From the NCBI GenBank assembly GCA_965214605.1, contig OZ243961.1, positions 1,952,001 through 2,016,000 on the forward strand: 64,000 nucleotides of DNA, given 5' to 3'. This DNA is from an uncultured Candidatus Binatia bacterium (GTDB lineage: Bacteria; Desulfobacterota; Binatia; Bin18). Positions 29,956 to 49,346 of the stretch are shown in pieces. The stretch's first letter is position 1, and the number at the start of each line of letters is the position of its first letter. Below the pieces are notes generated by a model. It saw only the letters and a program-made list of their open reading frames with translations, searched no databases and was not told the DNA's origin. The position numbers were made by a program, and so were the translations under genes.

Positions 29956-30045
29956 CCGAACACCCTTACGGACAGAAGTCGCTTTTCGGCTTCGACGACA
30001 GGGGCAGCGTCCAGGCCAGACGTGCGACCTGTTGGAGACGAGATC

Positions 30046-30425: not shown

Positions 30426-30532
30426 CCGGGTGTCCAGACAGGAAAAACATGGCGATGCGCTTCCTATTCGTTCGGCAACAGGCCGGGGGAATCCGCTGCC
30501 TGGGATTGCGGAGACGCCCAGTGTCTCCAGTA

Positions 30533-31630
30533 ATACCAGCGGTGCTTGGTTCAGACTCATGAAGGGGATTCCCTCACGGCCCGGTTTCTGATTCAAGGTT
30601 GGAGGCTTGGATTGGAGGTTGGTGATGGGAGCGGCGATCCCCTTGCGGGGAGATTTCGATACGGCTGGATTGCGTCGTCTTGCGAAGCGGAGCCGGGACG
30701 GGGCACAGAGCCATCGTCTTTTGGCAGTGGTGTTGATCTACGACGGTTATCCCCGTTCGGACGCGGCGCGCTTTGCGGGAGTCGGGCTGCAGATCATTCC
30801 GGACTGGGTTCTGCGCTTCAACGAGAGGAAGGTCCGGAGGGCTTGCTGAACCGCAAGGCGCCGGGTCCACCTTACAAGCTGAGCGAGGAGCAGCGCGCGG
30901 CGCTGGCGGCAGTCGTGGAGAGCGGTCTGGACCCGGCGGTGCGCGGCGTGGTTCGTTGGTGGCGCTGCGACCTGGCGGCATGGCTTCGGGATCGGTTCGG
31001 CGTGTCGTTGGCAGGGACGACGGTCGGACAGGAGTTGCGTCGCATGAGCCACGCCAAGCTTTCTGCACGCCCGCGCCACTATGCCCAGGACGAAGCCGCG
31101 TTGGCGGCGTTCAAAACTTCCCCGCACGTCTGAAAGGAGGTTCGCGCCAGGCTCGGTGACGGCGTCGAGGTCGGAGTCTGGTAGCAGGACGAGGCGCATG
31201 TCGGACAGAAGAACAAAATCACCCGGCGATGGGCGAAACGCGATGCGCGCCCGGCGGCGCCCAAGGACCAGAGAACGACTTCGGCCTATATCTTCGGTGC
31301 CATTTGCCCGATGAAAGGCAGGGCCGCCGGGCTTGTCATACCCCGGGCCGACACACACGCGCTCAACGCCCATCTCGAAGAGATCGCCCGAACTGTGGAA
31401 CCCGGCGCCCATGCCCTCGTCATGCTCGACCGGGCCGGATGGCATATCTCATCGTTCCTCGAAGTCCCCGGCAATATCACCTCAATGCCGCTCCCGCCCT
31501 GATCGCCGGAACTCAACCTGGTCGAGAACGTCTGGCAGTTCCTGCGCGACAACTGGCTCTCGAACCGCGTCTTCCAAAGCTACGACAACATACTCAATCA
31601 CTGCTGCCATGCCTGGAACAAACTCGTCTC
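30533..31630 (+). mobile_element. IS630-family insertion sequence, inactivated transposase, right end truncated
   Basis: HTH region (GLQIIPDWVLRFN...GVVRW..CDL) and DDE motifs QDEA, LDRAGWH, SPELNLVENVWQFLR; in-frame stops at 31182 and 31500 plus frameshifts. Confidence 0.88.
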
Positions 31631-31659
31631 ACAGCGAACTGCCCGGGTTCCGAGCCACC

Positions 31660-32020
31660 ATGCCTCGATTGCGGCGCCCTGCCGGACGATCTGGCGATCA
31701 GCCATCGGACCCGGGTCGAGTTCGCCTCGCTGCTTGCCTGTGAAGTTCGCATGGGCAGTCTGGATGCCGGTACGGCGCGCGACGCGGGCTCACGGTTCGA
31801 GACGTTGATTCAGGAGTCCTTTGTTGCGCTACTGCCGACGCGCGACGACTTCGATCGCGCCAAGGACTGGATCGGCCATTTCGATACCGGTCTGAGAGCT
31901 GGAGATGCCCTGCACCTCACCATCGCGGGGAACCACGGCGCGGACGATTTATAGCCTGGACAAGCTGATGATCGCAGCGGGCAAGACGCTGTGCTTACCG
32001 AGCTACGGGGATTGATGTGA
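31660..32020 (+). pseudogene. PIN-domain (VapC-like) toxin remnant, N-terminus lost
   Basis: LAISHRTRVEFASLL...LRAGDALHLTIA...SLDKLM; abuts the truncated IS630. Confidence 0.7.
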
Positions 32021-32077
32021 TGGCATCGGTCGGATAAAAATAGTTGAGAAGATTACTCCGAGCTACGGGGATTGATG
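31998..32077. repeat. 20-bp exact direct repeat CCGAGCTACGGGGATTGATG (31998-32017, 32058-32077)
   Basis: Read directly; the 40-nt intervening segment is partly AT-rich. Confidence 0.85.
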
Positions 32078-32089
32078 CCTCCATGACGG

Positions 32090-32403
32090 TATTTCCGGAC
32101 GGGCTCGATCAGCCGCGCCATCGGACTGGTGACAGACGTACGAACTTGCTCGCAACATCAATACCCTGCCACAAGGCGATGTTCTTCGCCGAGAACGACG
32201 CAAGCGGCAACCGGATCAATCACAAAGCAGCAATCTCGGGCGGCTTGCAGATCGTTCCTGCAGGGGCCGCGCGCCAAGTGCTCGCCGATGACTACGCGAG
32301 AATGCTAGCCGACGGGATGCTGCTTGGCGAGAACGAGCCATTTGATGCGCTGATGGAGCGATGCGCGGCAATTGAGACGCGGGCCAACGGGTTGAAACCA
32401 TGA
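32090..32403 (+). pseudogene. C-terminal remnant of an AbiEii/AbiGii-type nucleotidyltransferase toxin
   Basis: HKAMFFAE...GGLQIVP...LADDYARM...FDALM resembles the AbiEii-family C-terminus; N-terminal catalytic part absent. Confidence 0.6.
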
Positions 32404-35400
32404 CAGCGACCTCACCCGAACCCGGCCGGATCGCGCTGGTGCGCCAGCGCCGATATCTCGTGGAAAACGTAACGCCTCCTCCATCACCCACCGAAGCCAC
32501 GCTCGTCGATCTCTCCTGTCTCGACGACGACGCGCAGGGCGAGCCGCTCTCGGTGCTGTGGGAGCACGAACTTGATGCCCGCGTACTCGAAGACGACGGC
32601 TGGTCGGCAGTTGCCGACAAGGGATTTGACGATCCCGCCCTGTTCGCCGCCTACCTCCGCGCGCTGTCGTGGAACTGCGTGACGGCAACCGACCCGAATC
32701 TCTTTCAAGCGCCGTTCCGTGCCGGCATCCGTATTGATGCCTATCAACTCGACCCGCTGCGCAAGGCGCTCAAGTTGCCGCGCGTGAACCTGTTCATTGC
32801 TGATGACGTCGGGCTTGGTAAGACCATCGAGGCTGGCCTAATCGCGCGCGAGCTTCTGCTGCGCCGCCGTATCGACCGGATCGTCGTTGCATGTCCGCCT
32901 GCGATGCTGGACCAGTGGCAGGACGAGATGGAAGCCCGTTTCGGTCTCACTTTCACCATTCTCGACCGGGCCTATGTGACGCGGATGCGCCGCGAGCGCG
33001 GCTTCTCCGTCAACCCCTGGACCACCCATTCTCGCTTCCTCATCTCCCACCGCCTTCTCATTGACGAGGCCCACGCTTCGGGCTTGCGTGACTGGCTTGG
33101 AGAGTTCGCCCCGCAATCCCTCCTAATTCTCGACGAGGCGCACAACGCCGCGCCCGCGAGCGGTGCACGTTACGCGATTGATTCGCAGATCACGCGCGCC
33201 GTCCGCGACATCGCGCCTCGTTTCGAGCATCGTCTGTTCCTGTCGGCGACTCCGCATAACGGGCATTCGAACAGCTTTTCCGCCTTGCTCGAAATTCTCG
33301 ATCCACAACGTTTCTGCCGTGGAGTCCGCGTCCTTAAGGGGCAGCTCGACGAGGTGCTGGTCCGGCGGCTCAAGTCCGATATCCGGGAACTCGAAGGCGG
33401 GTTCCCGAAGCGCACGGTGGCCCCGGTGAGAATCGACGGGCTGCCGCCGGACGCGCCCGAGCTCGTGCTGCCGAAGCTGCTGGATGCCTACCGACTCGTG
33501 CGCGAAGAGAGGCTCAAGAACGAATCACGCTCGCGGCAAACCGCCGGCGCATTGGTGATCGGCGGGCTGCAGAAACGTCTGCTGTCCTCCGTCGAGGCCT
33601 TCGCGAAGACGCTTTCGGTGCACCGCAAGAGCCTGGAACGTGTGTTGGAGAAGGCTTTGGCCGTCCCCACAACGTCGGCAGCGCCGCATGCCGATCTCCA
33701 ACGTTTGACTGTGGACATGGAGCCCGACACGGAGGTCTTTAGCGCTGACGATCAAGCTCTCGACATCGACGGCGAAACCATCCCACCGGACGATTCAGAA
33801 CGACCCGACCCGTCGGATCTCGAGTTGGCCGATCTCATGACGACGGCCACAGCGGCATCAAGCGACAGCAGCCAGACGGAGACGCGCGAGGCGCTAATGC
33901 GCGAACTCGCGCTTGTCGACGAGATGCGCGATGTGGCCGAGGCGAGCCGATACGGGGCTGACCCGCGCGTTCGCAAGATCATTGAATGGATCGACGCCAA
34001 TCTGTGTCCAGGTCTTGCAGCGCCCGGAGCAACACTCCCGCAATGGAACGATCGCCGCCTGCTTATCTTCACTGAATACGAGGATACGCGCCGATGGCTC
34101 CAGCGCTGCCTGAACGAGGCGATCGCGTGTTCCAGTCAGGCATCCAAGCGGATTGCGGCCTTCACGGGGATGACCTCCCGCCGAAGGCGGGAAGACATCA
34201 AGCACGCCTTCAACACCGAGCCGGGCGACGATCCGCTCCGCATTCTCATCGCGACCGACGCGGCACGGGAGGGCCTCAATCTCCAGCGCCATTGCTACGA
34301 CCTTTTCCATTTCGATCTGCCTTGGAACCCGAGCCGCCTAGACCAGCGTAACGGCCGCATCGACCGCAAACTTCAGCCCGCCGACGAAGTCTTCTGCCGC
34401 TACTTCGTGTTTGTTCAGCGGCCGGAAGATCGTGTTCTTCAGGTGTTGGTGAACAAGGTCGAGCGCATCCGGGAAGAACTTGGCAGCGTTGCCAAGATCC
34501 TCGAAGCCCGCGTCGCTCGGACCATTGGCGTCGAGGGCATGCGGCGCGACGGGCTCGACAGACTCGCGTCCAACATTCGGGATCTGTCGGCGAGCGAGCA
34601 GCGGCAAACCGTCGAGGAAGAGCTTGAGGACGCGCGTCTTCGCCAGGACAAGCTCCGCGAAGAAGTCGACGGCCTGCGCACACGCCTGGAACGCTCACGC
34701 ATGCATATTGGCATCGCTTCGTCACAGTTCCGCCAGACCCTCTCAATGAGCCTGAAGCTCGCCGGCGCGCCTGGGATCACGGCAACGGATCGGGATAGAG
34801 GGCAGGATCCCGACACCCCGCGCCGTTTTGTCTTTCCGGGAGATCACCGCGCGTTGGCAAGCGACTCCGGCTGGACCGCGGCACTCGACGCGTTGCGGGT
34901 GCGCAGACAACGAGGGGAGAGCTTTGGCGAGTGGCGCCGCCGGGCCTCCATCCGCCCCATCACGTTCGAAGACACCGGCCGGCTGGGCGAGAACGCCGTG
35001 CAGCTCCATCTCGAGCACAGCGTGGCCCGGCGCCTGCTCGGCCGGTTCACGGCACAGGGCCTGGTCCACCACGATCTGTCCAAAGCTTGCCTGACCGTTG
35101 CGCCCGATGCGATCCCACGAGTGGTGCTGCTAGGTCGCCTCGCCGTTTACGGACCGTGCGCCGCGCGCCTGCACGAAGAGATGGTGCCGGTCACGGCGCG
35201 CTGGATCGATCCCGAACGACGGCAGGACGCGCTCACGCCCTACGGTCGGGCCGGCGAGCAGACTACGCTGGCCTCACTGCAGTCGGCGCTCGACGAAGCC
35301 GGACAGGACAGCGTTCCGGATCAGGTGCGAGGTCGTCTCGCGGCATCGGCGCAGGCCGATATCGCGGATCTGCTGCCGCATCTGGAGCGACGGGCGGACG

Positions 35401-35714
35401 AATACGCGGAGCAAGCGAAGAGACGTCTTGCCGAACGGTCGGAGGCCGAAAGGCGCAGCATGATCGAACTGCTCAAGCGCCAGCGGAAGAGGATTGCCGA
35501 AGCCGTCAGCAAAAACGACCGACAACTGACGTTCGACTTCGATGCAGCCGAGCGGCGCCAACGCGAAGCCGATCGCCGCGCCTGGAGCCGGCGCCTCGAA
35601 GCCATTGAGACCGAGCTCGAGACCGAGCCGCGCCGGATCGCCGACACGTACAGCGTACGCGCCGTGCGCGTCGATCCGCTCGGCCTCGTCTATCTCTGGC
35701 CGCTGACGGGATAG
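32400..35714 (+). CDS. drmD: DISARM SNF2-like helicase DrmD
   Basis: ADDVGLGKT (Walker A), DEAH, SATPHNG, QRNGRIDR; first gene of a class 1 DISARM gene order. Confidence 0.92.
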   Translation: MTATSPEPGRIALVRQRRYLVENVTPPPSPTEATLVDLSCLDDDAQGEPLSVLWEHELDARVLEDDGWSAVADKGFDDPALFAAYLRALSWNCVTATDPNLFQAPFRAGIRIDAYQLDPLRKALKLPRVNLFIADDVGLGKTIEAGLIARELLLRRRIDRIVVACPPAMLDQWQDEMEARFGLTFTILDRAYVTRMRRERGFSVNPWTTHSRFLISHRLLIDEAHASGLRDWLGEFAPQSLLILDEAHNAAPASGARYAIDSQITRAVRDIAPRFEHRLFLSATPHNGHSNSFSALLEILDPQRFCRGVRVLKGQLDEVLVRRLKSDIRELEGGFPKRTVAPVRIDGLPPDAPELVLPKLLDAYRLVREERLKNESRSRQTAGALVIGGLQKRLLSSVEAFAKTLSVHRKSLERVLEKALAVPTTSAAPHADLQRLTVDMEPDTEVFSADDQALDIDGETIPPDDSERPDPSDLELADLMTTATAASSDSSQTETREALMRELALVDEMRDVAEASRYGADPRVRKIIEWIDANLCPGLAAPGATLPQWNDRRLLIFTEYEDTRRWLQRCLNEAIACSSQASKRIAAFTGMTSRRRREDIKHAFNTEPGDDPLRILIATDAAREGLNLQRHCYDLFHFDLPWNPSRLDQRNGRIDRKLQPADEVFCRYFVFVQRPEDRVLQVLVNKVERIREELGSVAKILEARVARTIGVEGMRRDGLDRLASNIRDLSASEQRQTVEEELEDARLRQDKLREEVDGLRTRLERSRMHIGIASSQFRQTLSMSLKLAGAPGITATDRDRGQDPDTPRRFVFPGDHRALASDSGWTAALDALRVRRQRGESFGEWRRRASIRPITFEDTGRLGENAVQLHLEHSVARRLLGRFTAQGLVHHDLSKACLTVAPDAIPRVVLLGRLAVYGPCAARLHEEMVPVTARWIDPERRQDALTPYGRAGEQTTLASLQSALDEAGQDSVPDQVRGRLAASAQADIADLLPHLERRADEYAEQAKRRLAERSEAERRSMIELLKRQRKRIAEAVSKNDRQLTFDFDAAERRQREADRRAWSRRLEAIETELETEPRRIADTYSVRAVRVDPLGLVYLWPLTG

Positions 35715-35717: not shown

Positions 35718-38700
35718 ATGGCGGACCGCGAACGCCGCAACCTGATCTTCGCCCACCAGGAATGGCTGGGTTTCGTGCAGCCGGTGGGTCTCGTGGTCGC
35801 GCCGACCGTCATGGTCGACGCCCAGGTCGTACCGGACCGCAACGTTTCGGGACGCCAGCGGGAGTTTCGGGCGCTGTTCGACGCGAATGACGAGGCGAGC
35901 GTCGTCGCCGGTGTCTCGGAGACACGCGCAACGTACCGCGTCTCCGGAACTCCGCAGGGCTCCGTTCTGCATCGTGTGTTCCGGGAGTGGCTGGGCTGGG
36001 AGGACGACGACCTCGTGGAAGCGGAACGCCACCGCGACACGCTCGAAATCGCCCTGCCGGAATTGCAGGTGGTGCTCTCTCCGACCTGGGCCGTGCCGGG
36101 CGATCAGGATTCGGACCAGGCGTGGACGATGCTGATCCGGGTAGAGGACGAAGGAGCCGACTTCGACCAACCGCCCGGCGACGGCACCGGTTGGAATGCG
36201 AGCCGTCATGCCCGGTTCGAACGGCTGCTCCGGGAGACCGGCGTTCCGACCGGCCTGCTCTGCACCGATGAACGCATCCGCCTGATCCATGCGCCGGGAG
36301 GCGAGTCGTCGGGGCACATCACCTTCGAGTTCGCCCAGATGGCACTGCCGGCGGGCCGGCCCATCCTAGCCGCTTTCGAAATGCTTCTCTCGGCGGATGC
36401 GCTCTTCGGCGCCACCCCCGAGGCTGGCCTACCCGCGCTCCTGGCCAAGAGCCGCGATGCGCAGGCCGAAGTCTCAACGAAGCTCTCCCGCCAGGTGCTT
36501 GCCGCGCTGCATGAACTGTTGCGCGGCTTCGTCTCCGCCGACGCGCATGGCCAGGGGATCGTGACCGCGTTGGCGCGGCGCGATCCCGAACATCTCTACG
36601 GCGGGCTCATCACGACATTGATGCGGCTGGTCTTCGTTCTCTACGCCGAAGACCGGGGCCTCATGCCCGATCATCCGGTCTACCAGCAGCACTATTCCCT
36701 GGGTGGCTTGTTCGCCCGCCTGCGGGCCGATGCGGCAGCTTGGCCAGACACCATGGACCAGCGGTTCGGCGCCTGGGCGCAGTTGATTACGCTGTTCCGA
36801 CTGATCCACAGCGGCGGCGGTCATGCCAGACTCCGCTTCGTGGCGCGCAAGGGCGCGCTGTTCGATCCGGACCGGTTTCCCTTCCTCGAAGGGCGCGCGC
36901 CGGACCACGACCCGACGGTTCCCATGGTGCCGGACGCGACCGTCTGGAAAGTGTTGCAGTCTCTGATGGTGTTGGACGGCGAGCGATTGTCTTACCGTAC
37001 CCTTGATGTCGAGCAAATCGGTTCGGTCTACGAGGCTGTCATAGGCTTCCGCGTCGAGCTAACTACCGGCCGCTCTATCGCAGTGGCGTCACGGAAACGA
37101 ACCGGCGCCGCCGTTATCGTCGATCTCGACAGCCTGCTCTCACTCGACGGCGGCAAGCGCGCGAAGGCGATCCAGGACGCGACAGACCGGAAACTGACGG
37201 GCGCCGCCGTTGCCGCGCTCCGCAATGCAGCCACCGTCGAGGATGTGGTGGTAGCGATAGAGCGTAGCGTCGACCGCGACGCTACGCCCAATATCGTGTC
37301 GCCTCGAACGCCTGTCCTCCAGCCGACGGACGAGCGCCGACGGTCCGGCAGTCACTACACGCCGCGCTCCCTGACCGAGCCAATCGTTTCGGAAGCCCTG
37401 CGGCCGATATTGGAACGACTGGGGCAGGATGCCCGGCCCGAAGATATTCTCGATCTCAAGGTCCTCGACCCGGCGACAGGATCGGGTGCCTTTCTGGTTG
37501 AGGCCTGCCGTCAGCTGTCGGCCCGGCTGATCGAAGCGTGGAATCTGCACGACGGCCCGCCGGACCTGCCAGCCGACGAGGACGAGCTGCTGCACGCCCG
37601 GCGTCTCGTCGCCCAGCGCTGCCTCTATGGCGTGGACCGGAATCGAATGGCCATCGATCTCGCGCGGCTGTCCCTGTGGCTGGTGACGCTCGCACGCGAT
37701 CACGAGTTCACCTTCATCGACCACGCCCTGCGCCATGGCGATTCGCTGGTCGGCCTGACCCGCAACCAGATCGAAGGATTCCATTGGGATGCCGAATCGA
37801 AGGATTCCATTGAGATGCCACGGCCCCGATTTCAACTCGGCACAGAGACACCGGAAGTGCGTAAACATGTGACGCGGGTCTCCGAGATGCGTCAACTGAT
37901 CCGTGAACTCGGCGACGAGGCCCCTGAACACGAACTGCGAGAGCTTCTGGACGAGGCTGAACGTGAGCTCAGAAACATTCGCCAAGTCGCCGACTTGGTA
38001 CTGACTGCGTTCTTCGAAGGAGGGAGGCCGAAAGAACGCGAGAGCGTCCGGCTCAAATACGCGAGTCTGCTTCTTGAAGAGGACTGGGCTGCTACCGACT
38101 CGTGTGTGGCAACGAAGCTGCCGGTCGCACCGTTCCATTGGGAACCGGAGTTTCCCGAGGTGTTCGAGCGCGAGAACGCGGGGTTCGACGCGATTGTGGG
38201 TAACCCGCCCTTTGCCGGCAAGAACATGGTCGCCGCCGCGAACGTCGCCGGCTATTCCGACTGGCTCAAGCAGATGCACCCTGGGAGCCACGGTAACGCG
38301 GATCTCGTTGCTCATTTTTTCCGACGGGCATTTGGCCTCCTGCGCTCTGGAGGCGTGCTCGGTCTCATCGCCACCAACACCATAGGCCAAGGCGACACGC
38401 GCTCGACGGGCCTTCGTTGGATCTGCAGCAACGGCGGCACGGTCTATCGTGTCCAACGCCGCCTGAAGTGGCCCGGCGAGGCGGCGGTCGTGGTCAGCGT
38501 GGTTCACCTCATCAACGCAGCGGTGTATTCCGGGCCATGTCAGCTAGACGGCCGCAAGGTTGACAAGATTACCGCCTTCCTGTTTCATGACGGCGGCCAT
38601 GACGACCCGGCGCGGCTCGCGGCAAACGCAGGCAGGAGCTTCGTCGGCAGCTACGTCCTCGGCATGGGATTCACCTTCGATGACACCGACACCAAGGGCG

Positions 38701-39761
38701 TTGCTACGCCGTTAGCGGAAATGCGGCGGCTGATCGCTGAAGACCCGCATAACAGCAACGCCATCTTTCCCTATATCGGTGGCAAGGAGGTTAACACGAG
38801 CCCGACTCATGCGCACCATCGGTATGTCATCAATTTCCGGGACTACCCGCTGCGGCGGAAGGAGCTGGGAGCGACATGGCAAGACACCGATGACGGACAG
38901 CGCCAGCAATGGTTGCGTGTGGGAATTGTGCCCCTCGACTATCCGGCTCCGGTGGCGGCTGACTGGCCGGACCTGCTGACGATCGTCGAAGAGCGCGTGA
39001 AGCCGGCCCGGGCGCATCTCACGAACAACCCCATCGGCCGTAAACGCTCCCAGTTCTGGTGGTTGTATGGCTCACTCGCTAAGGAACTCTATGCTTCGAT
39101 AGCCAGCCTAGACCGCGTGCTTGTAATTTCAGAAGTTGGGCAGCACGGGGCGTTCGCCTTCTTGCCAAGTAACATGGCCTTTTCTCATACACTCAACATC
39201 TTCCCGCTTGACACCTATGCCGCCTTCTGCGCCCTCCAGTCACGCCCTCACGAGATCTGGGCACGGTTCTTCGGTTCGTCGCTGGGAGATCAACTCCGCT
39301 ACACCCCCTCGGACTGCTTCGAGACCTTCCCCTTCCCCGAGACGTGGGAAAGCCACCCCGCACTTGAAGCCATCGGCAAGGCGTACTACGAATACCGCGC
39401 TGCGCTCATGGCCCGAAACGGCGAAGGCCTGACCAAGACCTACAACCGCTTCCATAATCCCGACGAAGAAGACGCGGATATTGTAAAACTCCGTAAGCTC
39501 CACGCTGCAATGGACCGCGTTATTCTCGCTGCCTATGGCTGGCCTGACGTTCCTACCGATTGCGAGTTTCTGTTGGATTGGGAGATTGACGAAGAAACCT
39601 GGGGCAAGAAGAAAAAACCCTGGCGCTACCACTGGCCCAATGAAATTCGCGACGAGGTGCTCGCGCGCCTGTTGTCCCTGAACGCCGAGCGCGCGGCCGA
39701 GGAACGACTGACCGGAAGCGATGGTCGCATCCGAGCCGGGAACACCAAGGCCGCCTCATGA
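35718..39761 (+). CDS. drmMI: DISARM N6-adenine DNA methyltransferase DrmMI (type IIG/Eco57I-like architecture)
   Basis: GSHYTP, VLDPATGSGAFL (motif I), GNPPF (motif IV), C-terminal TRD-like region; lies between drmD and drmA. Confidence 0.9.
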   Translation: MADRERRNLIFAHQEWLGFVQPVGLVVAPTVMVDAQVVPDRNVSGRQREFRALFDANDEASVVAGVSETRATYRVSGTPQGSVLHRVFREWLGWEDDDLVEAERHRDTLEIALPELQVVLSPTWAVPGDQDSDQAWTMLIRVEDEGADFDQPPGDGTGWNASRHARFERLLRETGVPTGLLCTDERIRLIHAPGGESSGHITFEFAQMALPAGRPILAAFEMLLSADALFGATPEAGLPALLAKSRDAQAEVSTKLSRQVLAALHELLRGFVSADAHGQGIVTALARRDPEHLYGGLITTLMRLVFVLYAEDRGLMPDHPVYQQHYSLGGLFARLRADAAAWPDTMDQRFGAWAQLITLFRLIHSGGGHARLRFVARKGALFDPDRFPFLEGRAPDHDPTVPMVPDATVWKVLQSLMVLDGERLSYRTLDVEQIGSVYEAVIGFRVELTTGRSIAVASRKRTGAAVIVDLDSLLSLDGGKRAKAIQDATDRKLTGAAVAALRNAATVEDVVVAIERSVDRDATPNIVSPRTPVLQPTDERRRSGSHYTPRSLTEPIVSEALRPILERLGQDARPEDILDLKVLDPATGSGAFLVEACRQLSARLIEAWNLHDGPPDLPADEDELLHARRLVAQRCLYGVDRNRMAIDLARLSLWLVTLARDHEFTFIDHALRHGDSLVGLTRNQIEGFHWDAESKDSIEMPRPRFQLGTETPEVRKHVTRVSEMRQLIRELGDEAPEHELRELLDEAERELRNIRQVADLVLTAFFEGGRPKERESVRLKYASLLLEEDWAATDSCVATKLPVAPFHWEPEFPEVFERENAGFDAIVGNPPFAGKNMVAAANVAGYSDWLKQMHPGSHGNADLVAHFFRRAFGLLRSGGVLGLIATNTIGQGDTRSTGLRWICSNGGTVYRVQRRLKWPGEAAVVVSVVHLINAAVYSGPCQLDGRKVDKITAFLFHDGGHDDPARLAANAGRSFVGSYVLGMGFTFDDTDTKGVATPLAEMRRLIAEDPHNSNAIFPYIGGKEVNTSPTHAHHRYVINFRDYPLRRKELGATWQDTDDGQRQQWLRVGIVPLDYPAPVAADWPDLLTIVEERVKPARAHLTNNPIGRKRSQFWWLYGSLAKELYASIASLDRVLVISEVGQHGAFAFLPSNMAFSHTLNIFPLDTYAAFCALQSRPHEIWARFFGSSLGDQLRYTPSDCFETFPFPETWESHPALEAIGKAYYEYRAALMARNGEGLTKTYNRFHNPDEEDADIVKLRKLHAAMDRVILAAYGWPDVPTDCEFLLDWEIDEETWGKKKKPWRYHWPNEIRDEVLARLLSLNAERAAEERLTGSDGRIRAGNTKAAS

Positions 39762-42700
39762 CCCTGACTTCTACCCCCACCTTCAACGATAGCGCCTGCG
39801 TCCGCGACTATCTGGTGGAGGCATTGCGGTTCGACCTGATCGGTCCGCGCCCCGGAGACAACGTCCTTGGGCATGAATACCTGCCGCACGCGCCGTCTCG
39901 CTGGTACCTGACCGGGTTCCTGGCGCCGACGGGCGCACCGGGTGCCCAGCGGGCGCAGGATGCCGAAGAGGAACTCGACGAGCCGTCCGAGCCCACCCAG
40001 GGAAGCGACGATGCGAGCACGCCGGAGCGCGGCAGCGGCAAACGCGCCTTTCTGCCCTCGTCCATGGGTCTGAGCGTTCTGACGGACGCGTCCGCCAAGC
40101 GCCTCGACATTGCGCTGTCCTGGGGCGACTACGCGCCGGAGGAAGAGCCGGCACGCAATGCCGCAAACCAGGGCGACGAACCCGGCGATGATGCGGCCCC
40201 GGCCCGGCGCCGCTTTGCGCCTTGGGTCCGCCATCCGCGTGCAGAGACCATCTACATTGATCTGGAGGCGATTCAAGCTGGGACACCGGTTCGGGTCGAC
40301 GTGCCGGACAGTGGCGGTCTCGAGATTGTTTGCCTGGTTCGACAGACCTGGGTTCGAGAGGTCGAGGGCAATCTCGATGCCCGCGCCGTCTCCCTGTTCG
40401 TCGTCAACCGGCGCCCGGCACCAGAGGACGACGATCTGCAGGACACGGCCTTCGCATTTCAGGTCGAAATGAGTCTTACCGCGGATCGGCCATTTGTCCC
40501 GAGACACGACCCGCGCGGCCTCGAAAGCGACGACTGGGACGAGCGACTCGCCGACCTGCATTACCGGGACGCGGCGGAATACGCGGTTGGTCACAATGTC
40601 TCCACCTGGGCGGGCACATCCGATGGCGCATGCCGTCGGGTGCATACCGAATGGATGCCTCGCGCCGCAGTAGAACGCGTCAAACCATCGGAAATCCCAG
40701 ACGTCGAGTTCGGCATGGAGGCGCTCGGCACCCTAGAGGACGCGGCGGATGCGAAGCGGTCGCTGAACCCGCTGGTCCGCGCTTATCGCGATTGGATTGA
40801 GGACCAGCACGAGAAAGCGCAAGCCTTCTCCGGCGGGCGCCGGGAGGTCGCGGACGAGCTGGTGAGCAGGGCTACCCGTGCGGCGGATCGCATCCAGGCC
40901 GGCATCGATCTGCTTGACGATCCCGACCTGCTGGGTGCGTTCCGCATCGCCAACCGCGCCATGGCGGAGGCGGCGCGGCGGCGAAGGGCGCAGGAGGAGT
41001 GCATCCCGCCTGAAGCGGTAAACCCGCCTGAGTGGCGTCCCTTCCAGCTCGCCTACATTCTGATGAACCTTCGCGGAATCGCCGAGCCGACCCATGTCGA
41101 GCGCGAGATCGTCGATCTGCTGTTCTTCCCCACCGGCGGTGGCAAGACCGAAGCCTATCTCGGGCTGGCAGCGTTTACGCTCGTCCTGCGCCGTCTGCGC
41201 GATCCCGACCCGGTCCATCGCGGTCTGTCGGTACTCATGCGCTACACGCTCCGCCTTCTCACTCTCGACCAGCTCGGGCGCGCCGCGGCGCTTATTTGCG
41301 CGCTCGAGCTCGAGCGCGAGGCTGCACCCGGAGAACTCGGAACATGGCCGTTCGAGATCGCGCTCTGGGTGGGCCGCGCCGCGACGCCCAACCACATGGG
41401 CCAGAAGGGCGATCGGTCCAACGACACCGCACGCGCGAAGACGTTACGATTTGCGCGCGACACCTCGCGCGATCCGCCACTGCCGCTGGATCGGTGCCCC
41501 TGGTGCGGCACGAAATTCGGAAAGCGTTCCTTCCGCCTGGACCCTGACACCGATAACCCGAAAAATCTGTCGGTGTGTTGCGCAAACCGGCGCTGCGATT
41601 TCGCGGGAAAGCGTCACCTGCCCATCGTTGCAGTGGACGAGCCAATCTACGAACGCCTGCCGGCCTTCATGATCGCGACCGCCGATAAGTTCGCCGCCAT
41701 GCCGTGGAGCGGCGAGACGGCGGGTTTCTTCCGGGGCGGCGACGCGACCGACCCGCGGCCGCCCGACCTCATCATTCAGGACGAGCTGCATCTCATCTCG
41801 GGGCCGCTTGGCACCATGGCAGGGCTTTACGAAACAGCGGTCAACCATCTCTGCCAACGCCAAATCGACGGCAAGGAAGTGCGCCCGAAGATCATCGCGT
41901 CGACCGCGACCGTGCGCCTCGCCCAAAAGCAGATTCGCGCCCTGTTCGGTCGCTCCTCTGTGGCAGTGTTTCCTGCGCCGGGGATTGAGCGGCGGGACTC
42001 GTTCTTTGCCGAACAGGCGCCGCAACAGGAGGTGCACCCGCGGATCTATCTCGGCATCGCCGCGCAGGGTCGCGGGCCAAAGGTCATCTTCCTGAGAAGC
42101 ACGATCACGCTGATGGCCGCGGCTCAAGCTGCCTGGAACGCCGTGACCGGCGGCGGCGTCAACCCCGCCGATCCCTACATGACGGTCGTCGCCTACTTCA
42201 ATGCCCTGCGCGAACTGGGGAGCGCACGGCGCATTGTCGAGGACGAGATCGGTTCGCGCCTTCTAACCTATGCCGGCCGCAAGCGCCTCGACGATGCAGC
42301 CGGGCTGTTCGCCGACAGACGGATCGCCTTCGAGCCGGTCGAGCTGACCTCGCGCGTTGGTACAGCCAATGTCGCCGACGCCAAGCGCCGGCTCTCCCTC
42401 GACTTCACTGACAAGGAACGCGTGGACGTGGCTCTAGCCACGAACATGATCTCCGTCGGCCTCGACATCACACGGCTCGGCTTGATGCTCGTCTCCGGCC
42501 AGCCGAAAACCACGGCTGAATACATCCAGGCTACGAGCCGCGTAGGCCGCGATCCGGCGCGGCCCGGCCTGATAGTGACTCTCCTAAATGTCCATAAGCC
42601 GCGTGACCGCTCGCACTATGAGCGCTTCTCCGCCTGGCACGACTCCTTCTATCGTGGGGTCGAAGCGACCAGCGTCACACCGTTCTCTCCGCGCGCCCTT

Positions 42701-44944
42701 GATCGGGGCCTGCCAGCGATCACGGTCGCTCTGGCAAGGCTCGGAATCCCGGAGTTGACACAGATGTCCGCAGCCCGGGGCGTCAAACATCACGGCACGG
42801 AGACCGCGGCCCTTGCGCAGGCAGTTGCCGACCGGGCGCAAAACCACGCCGACGGTCTTCCTGACGGCTTCGGCGGTCACGTCAGGAACCGCGTTCAGAG
42901 TCTGATCGACGATTGGGTAAGGCTCGCCCATGAAGCGGCACAGGGCGGCGTGGCGTTCGGCTACGCGCGGGGCACTGGCACTTCGACTCCCTTGTTGCGG
43001 GAGATGATCGACCCGGATCGCGAGCGGCTGACCGACACCCAGCTTCGGTTCCGGGCGCCCCGTTCGCTGCGTGACGTAGAGCCGGGGGTGCTGCTCGGCA
43101 TTAAGACTCCTGAAGGACGGGACATCCGTAGGTTCCAGATGGCCGACAATATCCTCCGCCAAAGCCAGCTGATCACGACTTATGGCCCCGGAGCCATGAT
43201 CGATCTTCCCGAGTACTCGGTCATCGTCTCCGGGCTGCGGGACTGGTCCCACTTGCGGCGCGAAAAAATCGACGAGCCGCGCCTCGTCGCCAAGCTGCGG
43301 CGGTTGTTGGGCGTGCCCTCACTCGACCTCCGGACGCCGCAGCGTCACGAAGAGAACGCCCGGCAGGCCGCCGTGGGTGCACGCATCTTCCCGACCTGGT
43401 TCATCGTCAAGGACGCGAGGCCCTCGCCCCGCAATGCGCAGTGGCGGCGGCGCCGGCTGGTGCGACGGGATTATCTCGACGAGCTCCAGTTCCGGGATGA
43501 AGATGGCAGGCGCAAGCCGGTCGTGCCGGTGCGCTTCGTCTGCGGCTGCCGGCGCGGCCATATCGACGATCTGGACTGGCGCCGGTTCGTCCATCAAAGC
43601 GGCAGGACGTGCGAGCGTCCGCTCTGGCTCGAGGAACGCGGGACCGGTGCTGACATCAGCGACACCTTCGGCGTGTGCGACTGCGGTGAGGAACGCTCGC
43701 TCTACGAAGCGTCGAGTCCCGGAACCGGCGCCCTCGGTCACTGCGAGGGTAAGAGGCCTTGGATTGGGCAGTTCGCACGGGAAACCTGCGGCGAACCCTA
43801 TCGGTTGCTTGTGCGTACGGCGAGCAACGCGTACTTCCCTCAGACGATGAGTGTCATCTCCTTGCCTGAGTTCGATGCCGGATTGGCCGCGAAGGTCTCC
43901 ACGCACTATGACCGCCTGAAGGCGGCTGATGATCTGGGCATGCTCGCGAACTTCCGGATGATGCCGGAACTCGACGCCGCGTTTCACGACGTCGGCGATG
44001 AAACCGTGCTCGCCGAATACCGACGGCAGAAGGGCGGTGGCGAGCGAGAAGACGTTCCGGTCAAGACCGCGGAGTTCGAGATTCTCGACAAAGGCGACGA
44101 CTTTATCGGGGAGAATGACGCTCACTCTAAGTTCTACGCTCAAACGCTACCGCGTAACGATTGGGATCCCAACCGGCATACTCTCCTTGCCACCGTCGAC
44201 AAGCTGGTACTGGTGTATCGCCTGCGGGAAGTCGTCTCGCTTTTGGGATTCACAAGGTTTGAGGCAATCAGCCCGGACAAGGACGGGGAACTCGACCTCG
44301 ACGTTATCAGGGCCTCGCTCGCCGAAACGATCACCTGGTTGCCAGCGGTCGAGAATCAGGGCGAAGGCATCTTCCTGTCGTTCAAAACCGAAAAAATAAA
44401 GAGATGGCTAGCACGCCCCGGCGTCCAGGCACGTGGAAAGGTGCTCCTGGAAGGCTGGCAAACGTGGGCCGTAGAGCGCCACCGTCCTAAGGACGGGTTT
44501 CCCGGTCTACCCTATGTAATGCTGCATTCGCTCTCGCACCTGCTGATGACCTCAATCGCGCTCGACTGCGGCTACCCGGCCAGCTCTTTGCGCGAACGCG
44601 TCTATGCGGGCGACGGAGGCTACGGCATATTGATCTATACCGGATCGTCCGACTCTGAAGGGACACTGGGCGGATTAGTCGAGACGGGGCGACGTCTTGC
44701 CGTGTATTTTCAGCGTGCTCTTCACAGCGGCCGCTTGTGCTCTAACGACCCGGTGTGCGCGGAACATGCGCCCGACTCCCAGCTTGAGGGCCGCCTGTTG
44801 CAAGGAGCCGCCTGTCACGGCTGCCTTCTCATTGCCGAGACAAGTTGCGAACAGCGCAACGATTTTCTCGACCGGGCGCTTGTTGTTCCGACGGTCGGTC
44901 TCGGGGATGCCTCCTTCTTCGATCTTTCCGAGCACGGATCGTAA
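39758..44944 (+). CDS. drmA-drmB: In-frame fusion of DISARM helicase DrmA (aa 1-1127) and DUF1998 protein DrmB (aa 1128-1728, internal ATG at 43139)
   Basis: DrmA: WRPFQ, FPTGGGKTEAY, CPWCG, QDELH, ATNMISVGLD, YIQATSRVGR. DrmB: RQSQLITTYGPGAMIDLP, C..GH, HSLSHLL, CSNDPVC, ACHGC, ETSCE. No stop codon between them. Confidence 0.9.
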   Translation: MTLTSTPTFNDSACVRDYLVEALRFDLIGPRPGDNVLGHEYLPHAPSRWYLTGFLAPTGAPGAQRAQDAEEELDEPSEPTQGSDDASTPERGSGKRAFLPSSMGLSVLTDASAKRLDIALSWGDYAPEEEPARNAANQGDEPGDDAAPARRRFAPWVRHPRAETIYIDLEAIQAGTPVRVDVPDSGGLEIVCLVRQTWVREVEGNLDARAVSLFVVNRRPAPEDDDLQDTAFAFQVEMSLTADRPFVPRHDPRGLESDDWDERLADLHYRDAAEYAVGHNVSTWAGTSDGACRRVHTEWMPRAAVERVKPSEIPDVEFGMEALGTLEDAADAKRSLNPLVRAYRDWIEDQHEKAQAFSGGRREVADELVSRATRAADRIQAGIDLLDDPDLLGAFRIANRAMAEAARRRRAQEECIPPEAVNPPEWRPFQLAYILMNLRGIAEPTHVEREIVDLLFFPTGGGKTEAYLGLAAFTLVLRRLRDPDPVHRGLSVLMRYTLRLLTLDQLGRAAALICALELEREAAPGELGTWPFEIALWVGRAATPNHMGQKGDRSNDTARAKTLRFARDTSRDPPLPLDRCPWCGTKFGKRSFRLDPDTDNPKNLSVCCANRRCDFAGKRHLPIVAVDEPIYERLPAFMIATADKFAAMPWSGETAGFFRGGDATDPRPPDLIIQDELHLISGPLGTMAGLYETAVNHLCQRQIDGKEVRPKIIASTATVRLAQKQIRALFGRSSVAVFPAPGIERRDSFFAEQAPQQEVHPRIYLGIAAQGRGPKVIFLRSTITLMAAAQAAWNAVTGGGVNPADPYMTVVAYFNALRELGSARRIVEDEIGSRLLTYAGRKRLDDAAGLFADRRIAFEPVELTSRVGTANVADAKRRLSLDFTDKERVDVALATNMISVGLDITRLGLMLVSGQPKTTAEYIQATSRVGRDPARPGLIVTLLNVHKPRDRSHYERFSAWHDSFYRGVEATSVTPFSPRALDRGLPAITVALARLGIPELTQMSAARGVKHHGTETAALAQAVADRAQNHADGLPDGFGGHVRNRVQSLIDDWVRLAHEAAQGGVAFGYARGTGTSTPLLREMIDPDRERLTDTQLRFRAPRSLRDVEPGVLLGIKTPEGRDIRRFQMADNILRQSQLITTYGPGAMIDLPEYSVIVSGLRDWSHLRREKIDEPRLVAKLRRLLGVPSLDLRTPQRHEENARQAAVGARIFPTWFIVKDARPSPRNAQWRRRRLVRRDYLDELQFRDEDGRRKPVVPVRFVCGCRRGHIDDLDWRRFVHQSGRTCERPLWLEERGTGADISDTFGVCDCGEERSLYEASSPGTGALGHCEGKRPWIGQFARETCGEPYRLLVRTASNAYFPQTMSVISLPEFDAGLAAKVSTHYDRLKAADDLGMLANFRMMPELDAAFHDVGDETVLAEYRRQKGGGEREDVPVKTAEFEILDKGDDFIGENDAHSKFYAQTLPRNDWDPNRHTLLATVDKLVLVYRLREVVSLLGFTRFEAISPDKDGELDLDVIRASLAETITWLPAVENQGEGIFLSFKTEKIKRWLARPGVQARGKVLLEGWQTWAVERHRPKDGFPGLPYVMLHSLSHLLMTSIALDCGYPASSLRERVYAGDGGYGILIYTGSSDSEGTLGGLVETGRRLAVYFQRALHSGRLCSNDPVCAEHAPDSQLEGRLLQGAACHGCLLIAETSCEQRNDFLDRALVVPTVGLGDASFFDLSEHGS

Positions 44945-45597
44945 TGAAATTCGATGCCTTGGTGGCGGCCGACCGGCAGGACCTCATCCGCCTGGCTGGC
45001 CTGCTGGAAGCCGGCCTTCTGTCACCGCCCTTCAGTGCGCTGTCGCTGTGCGACCACATTGCCGCCGCACACGCCGACGCGGTGGCGCGGTGCTTCGGAG
45101 AACTCTCGCAACGGGACATGCCTCCCAGCCACATCGCGCTCCTGCTTCGCGCCTTCGCCGCCGGCGCACAAGCGGCCGGCGGTTCCTCATTGCCCGTCGA
45201 AGTTGTAGTCAGCGGGCCGGATGCGGCCGGCGGCGCACGCGATACCGGCGTGGTAATGCGGCAACTGTTCGGCAAGGCGCGCGAGCGAGTGTTGGCCGTT
45301 GGTTTCGCGAGCGAATTCGTTCGCAACGAGCGGCCCGGTAAGCGCTTGCCACGCGTCTACTACGACCCCCAGTCGCTGGAACCCGCAGGCCGCACGGCCA
45401 GTTCGATGCATGCCAAGTGCGTGATCATCGACGGTCGGGAGGCACTCGTGACCTCGGCGAACTTCACGGAAGCCGCACAACAACGAAACATCGAACTCGG
45501 TCTTCTGGAAGATTCGCATGGCATCGCGGGTCGAATCGAGAAGCATTTCATATCTCTAACTCAGAACGGCTTTCTTAATCGGATCCCGCTTCCCTGA
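44944..45597 (+). CDS. drmC: DISARM phospholipase D-like nuclease DrmC (217 aa; apparently internally deleted)
   Basis: VVSGP...RDTGVV..LF, HAKCVIIDG (HKD), TSANFTEAAQQRNIELG; TAATG overlap with the preceding gene. Confidence 0.88.
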   Translation: MKFDALVAADRQDLIRLAGLLEAGLLSPPFSALSLCDHIAAAHADAVARCFGELSQRDMPPSHIALLLRAFAAGAQAAGGSSLPVEVVVSGPDAAGGARDTGVVMRQLFGKARERVLAVGFASEFVRNERPGKRLPRVYYDPQSLEPAGRTASSMHAKCVIIDGREALVTSANFTEAAQQRNIELGLLEDSHGIAGRIEKHFISLTQNGFLNRIPLP

Positions 45598-45799
45598 TCC
45601 GAATTCCACAGTGCCCAAAATGCCGAGGTACCACATCATGTGAGATGAAAATTGCTCATCCAGTGCTATCTTCACAGAGGAGCATTTCTCGCCGCTCTGT
45701 CGGACTGCCGAGGACGCCCCTTCGTTCATCAGAATGGAGGAGCCACTAACGAGTCACACCAGTGGATGCGCCCGTTCCACAGCCAGAAATGGGAGCCGC

Positions 45800-46425
45800 A
45801 GTCCCTTCATGGTCGAATTCAAAACGCAGATGACGTTGCGCTTTTCCATGCGGGCGTCATCCACGATGAGGAGCTCACCAACACACAGACGCTGTAGCTG
45901 TTCGATAACGAGACTGCCCGTCTCCGAAGCGCCAACGAAGGCGACCGACAAGCGCCGCATCCGTTCGATAGTGCTCTCGCCGAACATCTGCGCATCCGAC
46001 GCGACAAAGCGGGGCGACCCCGCACCGCCCGAATCGGCATACCAAAAGTCAAGGTTATCGCCCGCGACTGCAATACAGTCTATGGGTTCCGACGCCTTGC
46101 CGGACCTCAGCACTCGACCGAACATCACCCCGTCGGGAAGCATTACCGCGCTTCCGTGCGCAATGTCCGCTTCCACCCACCCGCGGATCATCAGCAATAG
46201 GCGAGCATCGCCCTCATTGTCGGTCGCTGAGAACGCCGCGCCGCTCGAAGGATGACTGTGCACTTTGACCACCGACAGTCCTTCCTCGGCCACGCGGTCG
46301 AGCATTGGGGTGACATACTCCGGCGACCACGTAACCTGGGTGGCCGTGCGTTCGGAGCAGCGATCGTAAGGTATGCCTTGAATCTCCCGCACGGTTAGGC
46401 GCTCGCGCCTGTCACCCTGCTGCGG
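45800..46425 (-). pseudogene. JAB-domain/ThiF (E1-like) fusion remnant
   Basis: VKVHSHP...FSATD (JAB HxH..S..D), followed by RLSVAFVGASETGSLVIEQLQRL (degenerate ThiF GxGxxG); truncated at both ends. Confidence 0.75.
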
Positions 46426-46965
46426 GATAGTGCTGCGGCTATGGTGTCGAAGTCGCGCGGGCTGCGCGCCTCGAAGAAGGGCGACCAGCGGGGTCTCCGG
46501 GCATTGAGCGGGTTGAGCAGCGCGTCGCGGCCGGGATCGTGGAACGCGCGGAGGTAGCTCCCCATCTTGTCGTAGACGACGCAGCGCTCCCCGCTCGCGG
46601 ATCTGGGCGACGAGGGCCGAGAGCAGCACGGTCTTGCCCAACCCCGTGGTGGATGGTGTGCTAGGTCACGGCGCGCTCCGGGTAGGGGACGCCCGCGATC
46701 CGGTAGGGAGCGCGTTTGGGCGTGGCCGAGACGAGGTCACGCGGCGGCGGTGGAGCGGCCGGATGCGGCGGGCGAGGTCGCGCGTCATGGCGAGCTCCGC
46801 GCTCCTGATGTGGCGCCCGGCCTGAAGCTGCTGCCCCCGCACCCAGAACAGGGCTAGGAACAGCCCGGTCGCGAGCGTGGCGAGCTTCAGCCCCGCCGCC
46901 ACGCCGAAGTTGTGAACGAGATATGTCCGGGCGGGGCCCTGAAAGGCTTTGATCGTCTGCATGAG
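46420..46965 (-). pseudogene. Type IV coupling protein (TraD/TrwB-like) remnant
   Basis: TM segment then RHIRSAEL; GKTVLLSALVAQIRERG (Walker A region); after a frameshift VYDKMGSY...LLNPL..R.PRWSPFFE..PRDFD. Confidence 0.72.
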
Positions 46966-47236: not shown

Positions 47237-47254
47237 TATAGCGGATGCGCTATA
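47237..47254. promoter_or_regulatory. Inverted repeat TATAGCG-N4-CGCTATA, probable toxin-antitoxin operator
   Basis: Lies 8 nt upstream of the toxin-remnant ATG at 47263. Confidence 0.5.
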
Positions 47255-47262
47255 TATCGGGA

Positions 47263-47730
47263 ATGGATTGGACGGCCGCAACCGTGTCGGCCGTTGCCGC
47301 CGCAATGGCGGCTTTGCCCGTGGCGTTGCGCGCCCGGCGGCTGGAGATGGTGGAGCATGGCGAGCGGGAGGCTCTTCGTGCACCCCATGTCAGGCTTCTC
47401 GACGGGAAGCTCTGGGAGCTTCGGGGGCGGGCCGAGGGCGGCATCGCGCGAGGGATCAACGTGACGGCGGGTGGGGGTGGTGCATGTCTTCGCCGAAGCA
47501 GTCGCGCAAGAGGCCGCGTCGGGCGGTCGCGACCGCCTGGGAGCGGCTGCGAAAGGGGATGCCCTGACGAAGCGGAAGGACCTGAAGAGGCGCTTCATGG
47601 CGGCCCCCAAGTTCCGGGAGGAGTACGCGCGCGGCGACGGGGAGTATGCGCGGATCGAGGCGCTGGTGCCCCGTACGGCGGCGAAGCTGACGCAGGCGGC
47701 TGCCCGTGGGTTTGGGGCCGACGGCTGAGG
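47263..47730 (+). pseudogene. RelE/HigB-like toxin plus HTH antitoxin pair, degraded
   Basis: LPVALRAR...PHVRLLDGKLWELR...IARG; then LKRRFM..PKFREEYAR...AKLTQ; frameshifted. Confidence 0.7.
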
Positions 47731-48206
47731 CCGGCGACAGGCCGGCAGCGGGCGCGGGCGAACGATTTCCAGCGCCGACGGGGTTTCGCACGGCTACGCC
47801 TGGGTTGGAACGAATCCGCTTTCAGAATGATTACGAAGTTTTCAGATGATATCGTATTCTATTGAAATAGAATAATAATCTTCACATCATGGCATTCCAG
47901 GCTGGCACCCGGTCAAACAGCCCCATGGTTTCCTGGGTAAAATCCCTCTTGATCGGCACCCCAGATATCAACCAACAGAACAATCGTCTCACGATACGTT
48001 TGTTCGCTCCCCTCCAACGACTGACGCTTTCCGGTGGGCTTGTTAACATCAGACACGATGGCGTTCCAGTTCCACTGGCCGGCCACCGATCTTGGTCCAG
48101 TAAGAAATTGAGCTCTGTTTCTTACTTATTGCCGCGGGCAGGTAAGAAATGTTACGAAGTTATTAGTCGGAGCGGCGAGCCGTCTTTAACGACAGACAAC
48201 GAAGGC

Positions 48207-49346
48207 ATGGAAAACCGGGACTTTTCGCGGGGATTCTTACCCACCCCTGATCCGATGGTTCGCTTACCCGAGCCGTTCGGAGAGTGGGAAGAGGTCGCCG
48301 ACAATCTCTCCAAGCTGGCCTTAAGCACGGTCCTGCGTCCAACGCTTGAGCACCTACCGACCTTCCCCGTCACCGAGCTCCACACCCAGCGAGCGTGTGA
48401 ACGCGCCATGAGCATGCTCTCGTTCATGGCCAATCTCTATGTGTTTGCGCCCGACCAGCCAATTGCCACCCGCCTGCCCAAACCATTGGCCGTTGCCTGG
48501 TATCAAGTCAGCACCAGGCTGGGCCGTCCGCCTATGCTGACCTATGCCTCGCAGACGCTGCATAATTGGCACCGCCTCGATCCGCATGGGCCGATCGCAG
48601 TTGGCAATTTGGCCATGATCCAAAATTTTCTAGGTGGAATGGATGAGGAATGGTTTGTCACACTCCATGTGAATATTGAAGCAGCCGCCGGGCGAGGCCT
48701 CTCAGCCCTGTTCCCCGCCCAAGAGGCCGTGTTGAGACAGGATACCCAGGGCTTAGCCGGATACCTGATCGAGCTTGCTGCAAGCCTCCAGACCATGTAC
48801 ACCCTGCTGCAGCGGATGCCGGAGCGCTGTCATCCGGACACCTACTATCATCGTGTGCGGCCGTATATGTTCGGCTGGAAAAACAACCCAGACCTCCCCC
48901 ATGGCATGCGCTACGATGGGGTTGTTGCCTACAAAGACCAACCCCAACAATTTCGCGGCGAAACTGGTGCCCAGAGCAGCGTGCTCTACGCCTTTGATGC
49001 GGCCCTTGGCATCCAGCACGAATTTGACACTATGCGGGCGTACCTGCTGGAAATCCGTGACTACATGCCGGTTCAGGACCGGGTCTATATTGGGCAGCTT
49101 GAACGCGGTCCAGCCATCCGAGACTACGTCCGGCAACACAGATTCAGCGCACCCTCATTGCGGGAAGCGTATAACGAGAGTGTCCGCGCCCTGGCCCATT
49201 TTCGCCAGCTTCACCTCGACTATGCCGCCAGGTATATTCTCCAACCGGGCCTAGCCAAGAAAACGGCTGCGGTCGGGACCGGGGGCACCCCTTTTACGAT
49301 CTCCCTGCAAAAGCATCACGACCAGACACTGGCCCATCTAGTGTGA
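48207..49346 (+). CDS. Indoleamine 2,3-dioxygenase-like heme protein (IDO/PrnB superfamily)
   Basis: RGFLP, LGRPPMLTYA, DEEWF..HV.IE, GETGAQSS, YMP, FRQLHL (proximal His), GTGGT loop; start set at ATG 48207. Confidence 0.88.
   Translation: MENRDFSRGFLPTPDPMVRLPEPFGEWEEVADNLSKLALSTVLRPTLEHLPTFPVTELHTQRACERAMSMLSFMANLYVFAPDQPIATRLPKPLAVAWYQVSTRLGRPPMLTYASQTLHNWHRLDPHGPIAVGNLAMIQNFLGGMDEEWFVTLHVNIEAAAGRGLSALFPAQEAVLRQDTQGLAGYLIELAASLQTMYTLLQRMPERCHPDTYYHRVRPYMFGWKNNPDLPHGMRYDGVVAYKDQPQQFRGETGAQSSVLYAFDAALGIQHEFDTMRAYLLEIRDYMPVQDRVYIGQLERGPAIRDYVRQHRFSAPSLREAYNESVRALAHFRQLHLDYAARYILQPGLAKKTAAVGTGGTPFTISLQKHHDQTLAHLV

Follow-up and report, generated by a model that had tools for sequence, protein, structure and literature searches.

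Class 1 DISARM is represented by the operon of Serratia sp. SCBI, whose genes are drmD, drmMI, drmA, drmB and drmC and whose DrmAB structures (7S9V, 7S9W) are described in the report of Bravo et al. (2022, PMC9142583). According to a preprint on the wider YprA family (10.1101/2025.09.15.676423), the OB-CON-DUF1998 canopy of these proteins is normally fused to the helicase; its account calls DISARM the only YprA branch in which helicase and canopy are 'consistently' separate, and gives one hypothesis that ties this split to other operon features. Here we describe a stretch of 64,000 nucleotides (nt; hereafter the window) from an uncultured Candidatus Binatia bacterium (GenBank assembly GCA_965214605.1, contig OZ243961.1, positions 1,952,001 to 2,016,000), in which drmA and drmB form one open reading frame (ORF), drmA::drmB. 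We consider it likely that this locus is a class 1 DISARM operon in which a real and recent one-base deletion has joined drmA to drmB, and that the resulting single chain still works as DISARM. A full-text literature search, which did not extend to the supplements of the above preprint, found no description of DrmA-DrmB fusions in DISARM.

The operon of the window has the same five protein modules as that of Serratia sp. SCBI. Serratia DrmA and DrmB are two chains, whereas the window encodes one, and DrmA of the window is the short form (NCBIfam DrmAS, 1123 amino acids (aa), versus 1325 aa in the solved Serratia chain). Like the YprA/MrfA/SftH helicases (MrfA, 6ZNP and 6ZNQ), the window protein carries helicase and DUF1998 canopy in one polypeptide, with a RecA1-RecA2 core followed by OB-CON-DUF1998. 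However, the sequence identity between a model of the window protein and the MrfA chains is just 11-12%, and the contexts differ: the window ORF lies in a defence operon that also encodes an SNF2 helicase, a methylase and a PLD nuclease, whereas YprA/MrfA is partnered by the MrfB/YprB repair exonuclease or has no conserved context. The nearest sequence kin of the ORF are DISARM DrmA and DrmB rather than YprA/MrfA. Judged by its sequence, the window protein is a single chain of YprA-like layout that belongs to the DISARM branch by kinship.

A single reading frame for DrmA and DrmB

The fused ORF and its parts are as follows.

39758..44944, + strand: drmA::drmB fused ORF, 1728 aa, ATG start; NCBIfam DrmAS and DrmB_fam, matches to PDB 7s9v_A and 7s9v_B, and motifs
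39758..43126, + strand: DrmA portion, residues 1-1123, with the conserved end ...GIKTPEGRDI; PADLOC PDLC02568 aligned to residue 1123
43127..43138, + strand: junction, with the deletion site, the former TAG (43129-43131) and the former 7-nt spacer GTTCCAG, now read as R-R-F-Q; from DNA alignment with 10 relatives
43139..44944, + strand: DrmB portion, residues 1128-1728, 601 aa, retained ATG first; NCBIfam DrmB_fam over residues 1133-1712

The translation of 39758-44944 has no internal stops and contains ...GIKTPEGRDIRRFQMADNILRQSQ.... Within 43110-43141, the in-frame reading is GAC ATC CGT AGG TTC CAG ATG (D-I-R-R-F-Q-M); a TAG lies out of frame at 43129-43131, and the ATG at 43139-43141 is codon 1128. 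An original prediction for this DNA had claimed an uninterrupted 1728-codon ORF holding a complete DrmA and a complete DrmB, with an out-of-frame TAG before an internal ATG. The TAG and ATG were found in the sequence exactly where it had placed them, and both halves of the ORF passed their NCBIfam cut-offs: the DrmA half scored 1116.7 bits against DISARM_DrmAS (NF038325; cut-off 950), and the DrmB half scored 553.6 bits against DrmB_fam (NF038324; cut-off 240) over residues 1133-1712. PADLOC DrmA matched with an E-value of 1.5e-270, residues 547-1123 lying on positions 1-607 of the 611 of profile PDLC02568, and Pfam MZB covered residues 1592-1690. The only solved structures matched by sequence were the chains of Serratia DrmAB, 7s9v_A (DrmA, E 2.8e-169) and 7s9v_B (DrmB, E 7.5e-94). 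The motifs GGGKT, DELH, TAT, QATSRVGR, CPWC and CHGC are all present. A frame of this length with such profile scores is far beyond chance. When a second drmA/drmB copy was sought with a junction query, only one match was obtained in the window's own genome.

Loss of one base at the end of drmA

Related loci were collected by a scan of one genome per species, which gave 44 loci (L004-L047) whose junction-region proteins are 68-89% identical to the window. Both junction motifs occur in 37 of them, and all 37 are split; among the other seven, six drmA 3' ends also stop and the seventh locus holds drmB only. The stop is kept in 43/43 readable drmA 3' ends, 1-3 codons past the conserved D-[ILV]. 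These split cassettes agree with the window in spacer length, in the drmA tail (...GIKTPEGxDI) and in how drmB starts (MADNI...), but all retain the drmA/drmB stop, whereas the window is short of one base in the preceding codon. Their drmA mostly ends one residue past the point matching residue 1123, and the free-standing DrmB of 37 relatives is 599-610 aa long with the N-terminus M-[ATPSQD]-[DEN]-[NDS]. A protein-database query spanning the junction, with 120 matches listed, returned 97 free-standing DrmA of 997-1289 aa among them, most ending one residue past ...GRDI.

Relative to drmA, drmB is in frame in 4 of the 37 loci, at +1 in 15 and at +2 in 18. When ten +1 relatives were aligned with the window at the DNA level, a single gap column resulted (window GACATCC-GTAGG, relatives GACATCCNGTAGG), which places a one-base deletion between 43127 and 43128. 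The 7-nt spacer followed by ATG GCC GAC is found in the window and in 10/10 aligned relatives. Because all related drmA ends stop at this point and the alignment contains a single gap, we read the comparison as the loss of one base from the last sense codon of drmA in the window. The old stop, spacer and start codon would then persist as fossils, read as R-R-F-Q-M. On the same comparative grounds the fusion is judged to be very recent, since the Met at the DrmB start is retained in the window alone (0/23 other junction-bridging proteins have Met within 6 columns either side) and the window is a lone fused tip on the tree described below, with split neighbours of up to 86% identity.

The labels of the metagenome-assembled genomes (MAGs) that carry L004-L047 include Alphaproteobacteria, Gammaproteobacteria, Bryobacterales, Vicinamibacterales, Gemmatimonadota, Dehalococcoidia/SAR202 and Rhodothermales, among others. 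In the window's own genus, only one of seven other genomes has a DrmA/DrmB pair, which is split and 35-38% identical, and this distance precludes a comparison within the genus. The occurrence of near-identical cassettes across phyla, set against one carrier among seven congeners, points to wide horizontal spread. One Gammaproteobacteria MAG chromosome carries a drmA C-terminal remnant of 127 codons twice (L045, L046), and one Alphaproteobacteria MAG has two full drmA-drmB junctions with an identical junction peptide (L037, L039). In L162 (G321), L099 and L121, which come from genomes and metagenome contigs, drmA itself is divided between two ORFs; frame breaks in such long genes are thus not rare.

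The junction in independently built contigs

Indels in short runs are a common type of error, and the deleted base lies in such a run, CC-G in the window versus CCCG, CCGG or CCAG in the relatives. One alternative is therefore that drmA and drmB are truly separate and that the consensus slipped in this short C or G run, a reading that would fit the split state found in each of the 43 relatives whose drmA 3' end is present. A run search found the stretch in runs of several studies, and contigs of four runs from two studies were compared with the window over 42140-44140. The junction is bridged by a contig of X1 in one study (42540-43297, word depth 6.2) and by contigs of three runs in the second study, namely X11 (42442-43411, word depth 75.8), X13 (42440-43379, word depth 6.21) and X14 (42442-43411, word depth 44.2). 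Each of the four has 0 other letters and 0 gaps relative to the window, and no indel was listed. The window may itself derive from one of these studies, in which case the other is independent.

In X11 and X14, another contig diverges from the window at 43127 and continues CGTAGGCGCCCGATGG... (CCG TAG GCGCCCG ATG). The split form seen here belongs to another, co-resident relative, and its resolution as a contig of its own indicates that the assemblies can tell fused from split. The same junction in independently built contigs from four runs and two studies argues against an assembly error, as does the separately resolved split form. We therefore regard a sequencing or assembly error as very unlikely and conclude that the deletion is real. 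The original prediction had proposed a one-base deletion as the origin of the fusion, and the single gap against ten relatives bears this out and places it in the last drmA sense codon; its suggestion that the deletion might be a sequencing error is made very unlikely by the contigs. It had also offered a natural covalent DrmAB and a very recent fusion as alternatives, both of which apply.

Other DrmA-DrmB fusions

Among the 120 protein-database matches listed, at least 20 are other full-length fusions of 1689-1812 aa with 94-100% query cover, and three more are junction-bridging fragments. Two of the fusions carry the NCBI name 'DISARM system helicase DrmA' (from a Bryobacterales MAG and from Singulisphaera sp. 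Ch08). When 50%-identity representatives were searched exhaustively, a single chain bridged the junction in 17 of the 150 best matches. Since a junction-spanning query favours fusions, 20/120 and 17/150 are not frequencies. The fusion as such is not unique, and fused sequences were already public, some of them named DrmA. A search for other full-length fusions had been among the checks proposed with the original prediction, and its yield shows that the novelty implied there was overrated, the rest of the operon being standard class 1 DISARM.

The DrmA part was placed on two FastTree trees. The first comprised 118 rows, 21 of them fused, with the three fragments left out; on it, the fused label required 4 changes, 3 of which were forced by well-supported branches. 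The second tree added split DrmA of metagenome and genome loci (186 rows, 21 fused; P0131 and ORFs without the motifs left out) and required 7 changes, of which well-supported branches forced 5. Here the fused rows fall into seven groups; three of these are single tips amid split neighbours, namely the window, P0002 and P0003. As both trees are midpoint-rooted, gains are not separable from losses in these counts.

The older fusions, which include P0059 (Singulisphaera sp. Ch08, 1778 aa), P0004 (Bryobacterales MAG, 1746 aa), P0002 and P0003, are single chains like the window protein and sit in at least 6 other places on the tree. Unlike the window, these fusions, known here from their protein sequences, retain neither the internal Met nor a trace of the stop. 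In P0002, the junction reads ...DISK GNS AAENIL..., versus ...DIN(stop) GIS MAENF... in the split locus L008. A stop codon seems to have become Lys here in genes that already lay in frame, a route to fusion other than an indel.

A broader reading, to which we give about even credence, is that the DrmA/DrmB split is labile and held by a single stop, and that the ancestral single-chain layout of YprA has been regained by re-fusion on at least five occasions and by different routes (here an indel, in P0002 stop-to-sense), giving fully functional systems, with the window representing such an event almost at birth. A fusion one base away from split relatives, together with several older fused lineages, implies that the split is not obligatory and is easily undone. 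The window and its near-identical split relatives also form a natural matched pair, one base apart, for asking why DISARM is normally split. The same operon with or without this base could be used to probe the role of separate subunits in assembly, autoinhibition and activation.

Predicted product and fold

In the mechanism that we propose, the single-base deletion in the last drmA sense codon throws the old TAG out of frame, and ribosomes would read on through the 7-nt spacer (R-R-F-Q) into the drmB frame. The product would be a single chain of ~190 kDa in which DrmA lacks its last residue only and DrmB is complete, its former initiator Met included. Such a fusion would fix a 1:1 stoichiometry and make translational coupling, or termination-reinitiation at the old TAG, needless.

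Separate DrmA and DrmB might still be made from the fused ORF by frameshifting onto the old TAG, by internal initiation at ATG 43139, or by both. TAG and ATG both persist, an AGG lies 6 nt upstream of the ATG, and the ribosome-binding site is equally weak in the relatives, which fits such a scheme. However, GAC ATC CGT offers no slippery heptamer for a -1 shift, the relatives probably use termination-reinitiation at the TAG, which is lost in this frame, and internal starts would leave DrmB on every DrmA made. Separate products are accordingly extremely unlikely. Programmed frameshifting was ruled out by the absence of a slippery heptamer before the TAG.

The fold of the single chain was examined with an AlphaFold2 model of residues 560-1728 built on a 66-row alignment. 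The model has a mean predicted local distance difference test (pLDDT) of 69.9 and a predicted template modelling score (pTM) of 0.62, with a strand at 1110-1116 and a pLDDT of 72 in the junction block. It aligned with DrmB 7s9v_B at Z 26.9 (root-mean-square deviation (rmsd) 3.4 over 485 residues, model 562-1165) and with DrmA 7s9w_A at Z 17.3. Single-chain MrfA 6znq_B was aligned across both halves (Z 14.8, model 78-1164, 438 residues, rmsd 6.3), as was 6znp_B (Z 14.8). The likeness to single-chain helicase-DUF1998 proteins that had been pointed out for this ORF is thus borne out by the model.

The chain may fold like the DrmA:DrmB heterodimer, in which the C-terminal arm of DrmA already rests on the N-terminus of DrmB. 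If it does so, the working of DISARM would be kept: DrmMI would mark self DNA, DrmAB would load where single-stranded DNA ends lack the mark, with help from DrmD and DrmC. The fusion would also restore the single-chain layout of the wider YprA/MrfA family. Given that the allele is real, we regard a heterodimer-like fold of the fused chain and a working system as on balance probable, because of the model alignments and the literature on the DrmAB and YprA layouts. A single-chain DrmAB could suit structural and biochemical work.

A class 1 DISARM operon in four ORFs

The fused ORF is flanked by the remaining DISARM genes.

32400..35714, + strand: drmD, SNF2-type helicase, 1104 aa; NCBIfam DISARM_DrmD NF038317 1041.3 bits (cut-off 610), PADLOC 1024.9 bits, motifs GLGKT and DEAH
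35718..39761, + strand: drmMI, N6-adenine DNA methyltransferase, 1347 aa; PADLOC PDLC02643 1252.8 bits over residues 11-1336
44944..45597, + strand: drmC, PLD-family nuclease, 217 aa; PADLOC PDLC02587 E 1.4e-51, Pfam PLDc_2 39.5 bits (cut-off 27), motif HAKCVIID

DrmMI also matched Pfam Eco57I, MmeI_Mtase and N6_Mtase and has the motifs NPPF and LDPATGSG. The drmMI stop overlaps the drmA::drmB start (ATGA at 39758), and drmC most likely begins with an ATG at 44944 that overlaps with the drmA::drmB stop codon (TAATG). DrmD, DrmMI, DrmA and DrmB each score above PADLOC or NCBIfam profile limits; DrmC passed those of PADLOC and Pfam only, its NCBIfam DrmC_I score of 125 bits being slightly below the cut-off of 133. 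The Walker A, DExH, motif VI, NPPF, Cys-cluster and PLD HxK(x)4D motifs are intact across the operon. No other frameshift, stop or motif loss was found across its 13.2 kb.

The class 1 DISARM features found here are a DrmA SF2 helicase, a DrmB with DUF1998/MZB, drmC downstream, and the signature genes drmD and drmMI. From the profiles, the intact motifs and the overlapping gene boundaries, the locus is assigned as a complete, tightly coupled class 1 DISARM operon, drmD-drmMI-drmA::drmB-drmC, with four ORFs instead of five, in agreement with the four-gene variant originally proposed. Its sole departure from class 1 DISARM is that helicase and OB-CON-DUF1998 do not lie in separate genes; apart from the fusion, the locus is ordinary class 1 DISARM.

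Directly upstream, a 119-aa ORF (32044-32403, + strand) ends in the ATGA that starts drmD and matches AbiEii in its C-terminal end only (positions 227-302 of the 309 in the PADLOC profile, E 4.8e-13). This ORF appears to be a relic of an abortive-infection toxin gene. Next to drmC, a 295-aa ORF on the - strand (45757-46641) has a Prok-JAB domain, only the first ~50 positions of ThiF/E1, and weak PADLOC E1-E2 matches. This is probably a truncated ubiquitin-like-conjugation defence gene.

Working variant or early decay

The principal alternative is a real deletion that acts as a lesion: tethering would leave the protein inactive or wrongly regulated, and decay of this DISARM copy would just have begun. 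Several results weigh against the reading of a real, working single chain. The fusion is unique among close relatives: of the related genome loci, 43 have a drmA 3' end, and none is fused. No fusion was found among at least 80 metagenome loci (46-54% identity) when DrmA and DrmB motifs in one ORF were sought with an alignment query of 18 fused proteins, a scan that did not retrieve the fused lineages themselves. In a 401-genome sample of the phylum of L013, queried with P0004, none of the 29 matching genomes had a fused form, some of the loci being without the junction motif pair. Likewise, none of 23 annotated rows of a plasmid collection queried with P0059 was fused, each having two separate genes (25 rows were listed of 103 matching records, two of them without annotation).

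Further points concern the locus and the protein. Defence-gene wrecks lie on both sides of the operon (the AbiEii C-terminal fragment and the truncated JAB-ThiF ORF), which makes decay in this island plausible, and the DrmC_I score falls slightly short of its cut-off. The account of the Serratia complex describes the C-terminal arm of DrmA as a pivot that moves in activation (PMC9142583), and tethering this arm could impair the activation switch. The AlphaFold2 model is only moderate in quality. A minority unfused allele may also be present in the source population, since contigs drop rare variants.

On the other side, the operon has no second frameshift, stop or lost motif. Independent fused lineages are old enough to have lost the Met and have diverged to 41-69% identity with both profiles kept; 9/9 fusions tested passed both the DrmA and the DrmB NCBIfam cut-offs. 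The connection between conserved anchors is 23 residues in the window, within the range of 22-31 residues in other fusions. These features, together with the number of full-length fusions, support the viability of the fused form, and we consider a lesion unlikely. We take the locus for a real and very recent single-chain DrmAB, probably a functional one, and for a minor variant of a known system.

Fusions had also been suggested by open-frame values of 1745-1904 aa in the 401-genome sample; ORF and motif scans of these candidates showed a drmA stop in every readable case.

Other genes in the window

Upstream of the operon, a stretch of about 3 kb (29087-31951) contains just ORFs without a Pfam or PADLOC family. 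Downstream, an ORF of a Gp49/HigB-like toxin family (47245-47862, + strand) is followed by a 485-aa homologue of indoleamine 2,3-dioxygenase (47889-49346, + strand; Pfam IDO, E 1.6e-94). A 179-aa ORF (54707-55246, + strand), which lies amid amidohydrolase genes, has polymorphic-toxin dual-specificity phosphatase domains (Pfam Tc-R-P, PTP-SAK).

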